Positions 46,700 to 47,925 of a stretch of 64,000 bases of DNA are shown in pieces. Each line of letters opens with the position of its first letter. Positions within the stretch are counted from its first letter, which is position 1. The translations under genes were made by a program, and so were the position numbers. The notes under the pieces were generated by a model. That model made no database searches. It had not been told where the DNA came from and saw only the letters and a program-made list of their open reading frames with translations. Source of the stretch: Escherichia phage A6-6; sequence record PQ510734.1; one strand, given 5' to 3'.

Positions 46700-47728
46700 A
46701 TGTCATCAATACCTTGGATTGATAATGAGTTTGCGTATCGTGCATTAGCTCATTTACCTAAATTCGCACAAGTAAATAATAGTTCAACTTTTAAATTACG
46801 GTTTAGATGCCCTGTTTGTGGAGATTCAAAAACCGATCAAAATAAAGCCCGTGGATGGTATTATGGTGATAATAATGAAGGAAATATTCATTGTTATAAC
46901 TGTAACTATCATGCACCAATCGGAATATATTTAAAGGAGTTTGAACCTGATTTATATCGTGAGTATATCTTTGAAATAAGAAAAGAAAAAGGTAAAAGTC
47001 GTCCAGTAGAAAAACCTAAAGAACTTCCTAAACAACCTGAGAAGAAAATAATTAAATCTCTTCCGTCATGCATTAGATTAGATAAACTGGCGGAAGACCA
47101 TCCAATTATAAAATATGTAAAAGCTCGTTGTATTCCAAAGGATAAATGGAAATATCTTTGGTTTACAACCGAATGGCCTAAATTAGTTAATAGTATAGCG
47201 CCAGGAACATATAAAAAGGAAATACCTGAGCCTCGTCTTGTTATTCCAATTTATAATGCTAACGGAAAAGCTGAGTCTTTTCAAGGACGTGCATTAAAGA
47301 AAGATGCTCCTCAAAAATATATTACCATCAAAGCTTATCCTGAGGCAACAAAAATCTATGGAGTTGAACGGGTTAAAGATGGTGATGTATATGTTCTAGA
47401 AGGACCTATAGATTCACTTTTTATTGAAAATGGTATAGCTATTACGGGCGGTCAATTAGACCTAGAAATTGTTCCATTTAAAGATAGACGTGTGTGGGTT
47501 TTAGATAATGAACCTCGTCACCCTGACACTATTAAACGAATGACTAAATTAGTTGATGCAGGAGAAAGGGTTATGTTTTGGGACAAATCTCCCTGGAAAT
47601 CAAAAGATGTTAATGATATGATTAGAAAGGAAGGTGCAACCCCTAAACAAATTATGGAATATATGAAAAATAATATTGCCCAAGGGTTGATGGCTAAAAT
47701 GCGGCTATCTAAATATGCTAAGATTTAA
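46700..47728 (+). CDS. 61: DNA primase gp61
   Basis: 342 aa, zinc ribbon CPVCGDSK...CYNCNYH, toprim-like core. Confidence 0.95.
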   Translation: MSSIPWIDNEFAYRALAHLPKFAQVNNSSTFKLRFRCPVCGDSKTDQNKARGWYYGDNNEGNIHCYNCNYHAPIGIYLKEFEPDLYREYIFEIRKEKGKSRPVEKPKELPKQPEKKIIKSLPSCIRLDKLAEDHPIIKYVKARCIPKDKWKYLWFTTEWPKLVNSIAPGTYKKEIPEPRLVIPIYNANGKAESFQGRALKKDAPQKYITIKAYPEATKIYGVERVKDGDVYVLEGPIDSLFIENGIAITGGQLDLEIVPFKDRRVWVLDNEPRHPDTIKRMTKLVDAGERVMFWDKSPWKSKDVNDMIRKEGATPKQIMEYMKNNIAQGLMAKMRLSKYAKI

Positions 47729-47925
47729 ATTAACCCAACCAAAGCAAATGCTAAATCTACGAATGTATCAAGAGTAATTACTGGAATATTAACACCATGA
47801 GCAATAGCAATTGGTGATAAAACAAAATTCCAGAGTAAAATTCCTACCATAGCAGAAATAGTAAAAGCTATACGTTTTTTATTACCTTTTATGGCATTAA
47901 CAAGTGCCATTAATTTTTGTACCAT
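47725..47925 (-). CDS. small membrane protein on the opposite strand (66 aa)
   Basis: Strong AAGGAGG RBS 4 nt before the ATG; two hydrophobic segments; convergent with gene 61. Confidence 0.45.
   Translation of the reverse strand: MVQKLMALVNAIKGNKKRIAFTISAMVGILLWNFVLSPIAIAHGVNIPVITLDTFVDLAFALVGLI

Follow-up and report, generated by a model that had tools for sequence, protein, structure and literature searches.

The window, that is, the whole 64-kb stretch of DNA analysed here, represents a Tequatrovirus (T4-like) genome given in the direction of early transcription. The region of interest follows the helicase gene 41 (43883–45310) and a group of small ORFs that includes spackle. Herein, gene 61 is followed by a small ORF on the minus strand, by gene 56, by two further small ORFs and by soc (48941–49186). 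Gene 61 (46700–47728, plus strand) is the T4 gene 61 for the DNA primase, as identified by its match to phrog_47 (E = 2.4e-106), and gene 56 (47997–48515, plus strand) encodes the dCTPase/dUTPase (phrog_173, E = 1.1e-46). The minus-strand ORF at 47725–47925 has its ATG at 47923–47925 and encodes a hydrophobic protein of 66 aa, MVQKLMALVNAIKGNKKRIAFTISAMVGILLWNFVLSPIAIAHGVNIPVITLDTFVDLAFALVGLI. It is convergent with gene 61, and gene 56 lies upstream of it in divergent orientation. The coding sequences of the ORF and of gene 61 have 4 nt in common (47725–47728), and their stop codons share two bases within TTTAAA. A Shine–Dalgarno sequence, AAGGAGG, is located at 47930–47936 on the minus strand and is separated from the ATG by a 4-nt spacer, which is short and counts against reading the ORF as a gene. 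An earlier note on this DNA had described both the hydrophobic minus-strand ORF convergent with gene 61 and an AAGGAGG ribosome-binding site 4 nt before its start; both are present as described.

The ORF is the orthologue of RB32ORF030w and RB69ORF029w (PHROG 2024). The PHROG 2024 profile matches it with E = 5.4e-31, aligning residues 2–66 with profile positions 1–65 of 65, and position between genes 56 and 61, strand and length are shared with that family without material difference. Over the 501 bases around the ORF, many T4-like phages of Escherichia and Shigella share 98–99% identity with the window, and phages with 99% identity to it already have the ORF annotated as "hypothetical protein". 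It is a hypothetical gene that is already catalogued in hundreds of records.

A predicted gp55-dependent late promoter, AATAAATA, lies at 47948–47955 on the minus strand, 22 nt before the ATG. It equals TATAAATA with A at −13, matches the late box at seven of the eight positions and has no −35 element. This is the A/T-rich promoter-like element that had been noticed earlier upstream of the ORF on its own strand. The late promoter of T4 is the 8-bp box TATAAATA, which is perfect at 32 of the 50 T4 sites listed, and A(−13) is its commonest variant with 9 of the 50 (PMC2988020). Taking the box as −13 to −6, transcription is predicted to start at about 47942, giving a leader of 17 nt. The predicted 5′ end of the mRNA folds into no significant structure (z = −0.56). 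In these respects, the ORF resembles T4 late genes with promoters of this type, such as soc and e, sharing the 8-bp motif, the expected distance to the Shine–Dalgarno sequence and the ATG, and independence from a −35 element. Both genes lie in the same window, where TATAAATA is found 30 nt ahead of the soc ATG and in two copies at e. The ORF differs from them by the A(−13) variant and by its setting, being isolated on the opposite strand within a block of early and middle genes.

The heptamer ATAAATA occurs at only 10 sites on both strands of the 64 kb, compared with 39.6 ± 6.0 in dinucleotide-preserving shuffles, a depletion of about fourfold that suggests selection against stray late promoters. 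Seven of the ten sites are found shortly upstream of a Shine–Dalgarno sequence and an ATG, namely at 1252, 1265, 1830, 8037, 21489 and 48903 on the plus strand and at 47955 on the minus strand; these seven include the soc promoter and both known promoters of the lysozyme gene e. Four of the ten are on the minus strand, one of them ahead of the ORF. Because of this scarcity and placement, the promoter-like element of the ORF is beyond what chance would give. The minus strand also carries a perfect TATAAATA at 59904–59911 and one-off variants at 3731–3738 and 858–865 with no ORF start nearby; they may be late promoters that are antisense to the early-strand genes in which they lie.

The motif NATAAATA is found upstream of the homologues in T4, T2, RB51 and the Mosig-, Dhaka-, Gapriver-, Karam-like and Klebsiella phages, at 12–35 nt from the ATG in every lineage examined but one; the exception is the L013/L014 lineage, where no NATAAATA precedes the homologue. 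The form of the box varies, with AATAAATA in the window and in Mosigvirus, GATAAATA in T4 and T2, CATAAATA in Gaprivervirus and the perfect TATAAATA in Dhakavirus and in the L023/L024 lineage. A strong Shine–Dalgarno sequence is likewise preserved in each lineage, as AAGGAGG, TAAGGAG, CAGGAGG or GCAGGAGG. Early and middle transcripts of T4 all have one polarity, and only late ones occur in either (PMC2988020). Since the ORF is opposed to the early and middle transcripts and combines NATAAATA with a strong Shine–Dalgarno sequence, it is most likely transcribed only late, by the gp55/gp33/gp45-directed RNA polymerase, from a start near 47942. A literature search on T4 ribosome profiling and on antisense or late transcripts returned nothing on the ORF, and a T4 omics paper mentions neither the ORF nor any unannotated or antisense genes.

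On the plus strand, the same intergenic region carries a predicted middle promoter for gene 56. It is composed of the MotA box tatTGCTTTA at 47936–47945, which fits the consensus (a/t)(a/t)(a/t)TGCTTtA, and of the −10 element TATAAT at 47957–47962, placed 11 bp after the box. The described spacing between the MotA box and the sigma-70 −10 element TAtaaT is 12 ± 1 bp (PMC2988021). The TATAAT precedes the conserved leader ATGAATTGAAAGG by 14 nt, as it does in T4, and the promoter is the positional equivalent of the mapped T4 promoter P56/69 (start site 16813). In this dam-less arrangement, the predicted late promoter of the ORF sits within the spacer of the divergent MotA-type promoter. The two are placed back to back, so that the earlier description of a bidirectional locus with a MotA-box middle promoter for gene 56 is right at the level of the sequence. 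A terminator-like hairpin of 8 bp (dG = −8.9 kcal/mol, z = −2.2), followed by the T-run TAATTTTTGT, is located at 47891–47920 on the plus strand, inside codons 6–12 of the ORF. Its sequence is the same in T4, and it could attenuate early transcripts arriving from gene 61 ahead of dam or gene 56.

This hairpin raises the question of whether the 200-nt stretch is translated at all or is conserved as a non-coding spacer or terminator for early transcripts that leave gene 61, a reading also favoured by the blank left at this place in the T4 and T2 reference annotations. The pattern of changes makes such a reading very improbable. Eight distinct DNA versions of the ORF within Tequatrovirus differ at 23 variable sites, which are distributed 8/2/13 over the three codon positions. 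The changes are mostly synonymous or conservative, with a pairwise dN/dS of 0.07–0.3 for all pairs with several substitutions. Compared with Mosigvirus, the DNA is 57% identical, and the differences fall 29/12/42 by codon position. Among seven homologues from five lineages, the frame of the ORF is the only one that is open throughout, all others containing stops, and it stays open at constant length in spite of amino acid identities of 17–54%. The hairpin sequence, on the other hand, is lost in Mosigvirus. Invariant residues, a strong Shine–Dalgarno sequence everywhere and duplicated paralogues also speak against a non-coding stretch. As judged from the substitutions, the ORF is under purifying selection and encodes a protein.

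The family is conserved across the T4-like phages of enterobacteria. A tblastn search matched the ORF in 692 phage records, 686 of them with at least 80% coverage; about 500 matches have 90–100% identity, about 190 (mostly Mosigvirus) are near 50%, and all adjoin the primase gene. Conservation in related phages, on which the earlier note had made its reading depend, is therefore found, the ORF being intact in 686 of the 692 records. Homologues with 17–68% identity occupy the same position and strand in Mosig-, Dhaka-, Gapriver- and Karam-like phages and in Klebsiella T4-like phages, and the position and strand are also the same in T2, RB51 and metagenomic lineages. The most distant of them, at 17–27% identity in Dhakavirus, in a Klebsiella T4-like phage and in metagenomic contigs, were found by position and not by similarity: the similarity search was herein replaced by inspection of the locus for an ORF with the same place and orientation. 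The gene lies on the late strand, convergent with the primase gene 61 and upstream of gene 56 or dam. The RB51 copy, which is labelled "RB32ORF030w, similar to RB69ORF029w", is two residues apart from that of the window.

In an alignment of 21 sequences, with identities down to 14–27%, W32, N33, P38 and G44 are invariant; A40, P48 and G64 are nearly so, and position 53 is usually acidic. As far as the compared sequences reach, position, strand, length and the core W-N-x4-P-x5-G are kept from Tequatrovirus to the Klebsiella T4-like phages. Two tandem paralogues, belonging to subfamilies A and B and separated by 8 nt, are found in Gaprivervirus VR25 (VR25_031 and VR25_032, L019 2495–2901), and the metagenomic contig L012 likewise carries two (267–673). 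The second Gaprivervirus paralogue has only a weak Shine–Dalgarno sequence, which suggests that it is translationally coupled to the first. The gene is absent from Krischvirus, where 61 abuts 56, and from one Karamvirus. Rare truncated or frameshifted variants (P0026, P0031) may be assembly errors or a sign that the gene is dispensable. The family is narrow: an HMM search of 1.84 billion representatives matched six clusters, and a broader profile, built with the positional homologues as well, matched 117 clusters at 90% identity, all from enterobacterial T4-like phages.

T4 itself carries the ORF. In NC_000866, it is found at 17738–17938 on the plus strand, between 61 and dam, with 62 of the 66 residues identical, the same ribosome-binding site and GATAAATA upstream. 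It lies inside a 309-bp stretch that the annotation leaves blank. The reference annotations of T4 and of T2 both omit it, and in the 1984 T4 record X01416, promoters and terminators are annotated at the locus and the ORF is not. T2 contains the ORF together with an extra ORF of 181 aa and dam, and Dhakavirus MX01 has the homologous ORF, an ORF of 186 aa and dam.

These arrangements bear on the absence of dam from the window. The earlier note had stated that T4 has dam between 61 and 56, which is correct per NC_000866, and had seen no adenine methyltransferase ORF at this position, which also holds. A tblastn search with T4 Dam gave no match in the 64-kb window (best E = 0.8). The motif DPPY is absent from it, and the only D/N/S-PP-Y/F/W motifs occur in unrelated ORFs of 103 and 107 aa elsewhere. 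The further, implied suggestion that the ORF is tied to the missing dam, as a membrane-protein cassette swapped in for it, fits the view from the window and the T4 annotation, in which the ORF stands alone between 61 and 56 in the one and dam is annotated there in the other. It has next to nothing in its favour once the T4 sequence is considered, which refutes it on its own: the ORF is not a substitute for dam because T4, T2 and Dhakavirus MX01 have both. In addition, the junction between the ORF and gene 61 is identical whether or not dam is present. T4 and the window are set apart by about 900 bp, inserted in the one or deleted from the other, beyond the ORF promoter and between the late-promoter motif and the gene 56 leader; the motif is retained although its flanks differ between the two arrangements. 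Compared with the T4 dam locus (61 – dam – 56), the window has the same flanking genes 61 and 56 and the same MotA-type promoter before 56, and only the dam segment is missing. Of the earlier reading as a whole, the promoter, the ribosome-binding site, the membrane character of the product, the absence of dam and the bidirectional locus stand, and the link between the ORF and the loss of dam does not.

Nor is the dam-less layout unusual; it is the majority arrangement. The locus is contiguous as in the window, with no dam segment, in 319 of 503 matching phage records (about 64%), and it is split in 184. A T4-type Dam with at least 90% identity occurs in 182 records, nearly as many as have a split locus; from these record counts, rather than from a comparison of individual genomes, we infer that Tequatroviruses without dam at the locus carry no T4-type dam at another place. 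Other inserts take its place in other lineages. In the metagenomic T4-like contigs L021, L023 and L024, the gap between the ORF and 56 holds a 94-aa ORF, an ORF resembling NUMOD3 homing endonucleases, or two small ORFs. Since the inserts vary by lineage and the ORF-to-61 junction is stable, this gap is a hot spot of recombination or insertion, and several accessory cassettes, dam among them, are gained and lost between the ORF and gene 56. The missing dam is an ordinary cassette polymorphism, which corrects a plausible but wrong story of replacement.

The 181–186-aa ORFs located just upstream of dam, T2_032 (L003 1865–2410) and MX01_28 (L016 3118–3678), are 64% identical to each other. They show a match to the Pfam region of the DpnII restriction endonuclease (GATC) that is below the curated cut-off (E = 0.0096), and other PD-(D/E)xK nucleases are matched as well. 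Possibly, the dam cassette is what is left of a DpnII-like restriction–modification module after decay. Downstream of 56 and ahead of soc, two small ORFs of the window (48515–48924, plus strand) share 97% and 69% identity with T2_028 and T2_029, respectively; T4 carries the homing endonuclease gene segF at this place. The window contains no match to segF or to T2_032.

The 3′ end of the ORF invites a reading at the RNA level. No terminator-like site was found on the minus strand within 47300–48300. Because the two coding sequences overlap and the ORF has no terminator behind it, the late transcript of Tequatroviruses should run antisense into gene 61. The late promoter could even serve mainly to produce RNA antisense to the 3′ end of the gene 61 mRNA, with the protein being secondary or the RNA having a dual function, as the 4-nt overlap would force any such transcript into gene 61. 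We consider this unlikely. In Klebsiella phage Roth68, a GC-rich hairpin, AAGGGGC-TTTG-GCCCCTT (L017 2824–2841), separates the small ORF from gene 61 and is likely a bidirectional terminator, and in L013 the homologue and gene 61 are separated by a gap. The antisense overlap is not a conserved feature since the hairpin and the gap intervene in these lineages; the protein sequence is conserved, and the purifying selection acts on the protein. Tequatroviruses lack a hairpin of the Roth68 type because their stop codons overlap. A protein-coding late gene is therewith the preferred reading, to which an additional antisense role against the gene 61 mRNA may possibly be joined.

The encoded protein is strongly hydrophobic, with a GRAVY of +1.25. 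Residues 19–42 and 47–66 exceed the Kyte–Doolittle threshold for a membrane span, the former with means of 1.7–2.0 in 19-residue windows. The basic residues K4, K13, K16, K17 and R18 precede the first hydrophobic segment, and D53 and D57 are the only acidic ones. An AlphaFold2 model from a 10-sequence alignment shows helices at residues 2–13, 16–42 and 52–63 and a loop at 43–51, with a moderate mean pLDDT of 75. The C-terminal segment may span the membrane a second time, re-enter it or lie at its interface. In subfamilies B and C of the 21-sequence alignment, this segment is both shorter and richer in polar residues, so that a two-span hairpin is no more likely than a single span in which the N terminus is inside and the C-terminal helix is short and periplasmic or interfacial. 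In such an architecture, the basic N terminus would remain cytoplasmic. It would be followed by a long transmembrane helix of about residues 16–42 that bears the invariant Trp-Asn and Pro, by a conserved Gly/Pro turn (His-Gly in most members) and finally by a short C-terminal helix, acidic and hydrophobic in character, that lies in or on the periplasmic face. From what is generally known of polar residues in membrane-spanning helices, the Trp-Asn pair and the Pro point to specific helix–helix contacts, and the protein probably acts through such contacts with itself or with a membrane partner.

Comparison with known proteins yields few leads. No match was obtained in Pfam (E up to 10), in NCBIfam or by Foldseek against the PDB; the best hit of a sequence profile search of the PDB was not significant (E = 0.096), and Foldseek against BFVD returned family members only. 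A literature search for RB32ORF030w and RB69ORF029w found no mention. The names given in the source records that were read are all "hypothetical protein" save for one "Holin" and one "putative head morphogenesis protein".

The name "Holin" comes from the UniProt entry of phage vB_EcoM_OE5505, and it agrees with the small size of the protein, its one or two hydrophobic stretches and the late expression predicted for it. The remaining named members examined are "hypothetical protein", and the product matches no holin family of Pfam or PHROGs. Three features of holins were looked for, of which the transmembrane domain was found and the charged C-terminal domain and the placement in a lysis cassette were not. 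The protein ends in DLAFALVGLI, with nothing charged past D57 and hence no hydrophilic charged tail. Its gene neighbours those for primase and dCTPase, and the lysozyme gene e is located at about 1280, some 46 kb away. T4-type phages, moreover, already have an unrelated holin T of 218 aa. Taken together, it is highly unlikely that the ORF product is a holin. Similarity of a more general kind exists with class II holins/pinholins and with T4 Imm: the product is alike in size, hydrophobicity and predicted N-in orientation, and the Asn in its transmembrane helix suggests helix–helix association. It shares neither sequence nor fold similarity with them, however, and differs by the missing charged C-terminal tail and by the location of its gene outside the lysis cassette. 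T4 Imm is, in addition, the product of an early gene, whereas the ORF is predicted to be late.

Very probably, then, the ORF is a genuine gene conserved in Tevenvirinae and independent of dam, predicted to be expressed late under gp55 control and to encode a small inner-membrane protein that probably works through helix–helix contacts. With respect to its function, a late role in the envelope or in lysis (lysis timing, lysis inhibition or exclusion) ranks first, and it is put forward as speculation with a rather low probability. Similarly tentative, and on balance doubtful, is the idea that it represents a functionally important late inner-membrane factor common to T-even-type phages, for example, an additional factor that controls the timing or the inhibition of lysis or a protein for late envelope protection, with a transcript possibly antisense to the primase mRNA. 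If true, this would place a new gene with a phenotype on the T4 map. A mildly notable point is that a conserved gene is missing from the reference annotation of T4, the model phage, and from that of T2.

Elsewhere in the window, another small ORF is found on the minus strand at 25268–25453, in a 294-nt gap of the nrdC region. It is overlapped by a plus-strand ORF of 60 aa, which renders its reality doubtful; of its 61 residues, the last 28 match the 28-aa family phrog_13445 (E = 3e-21).
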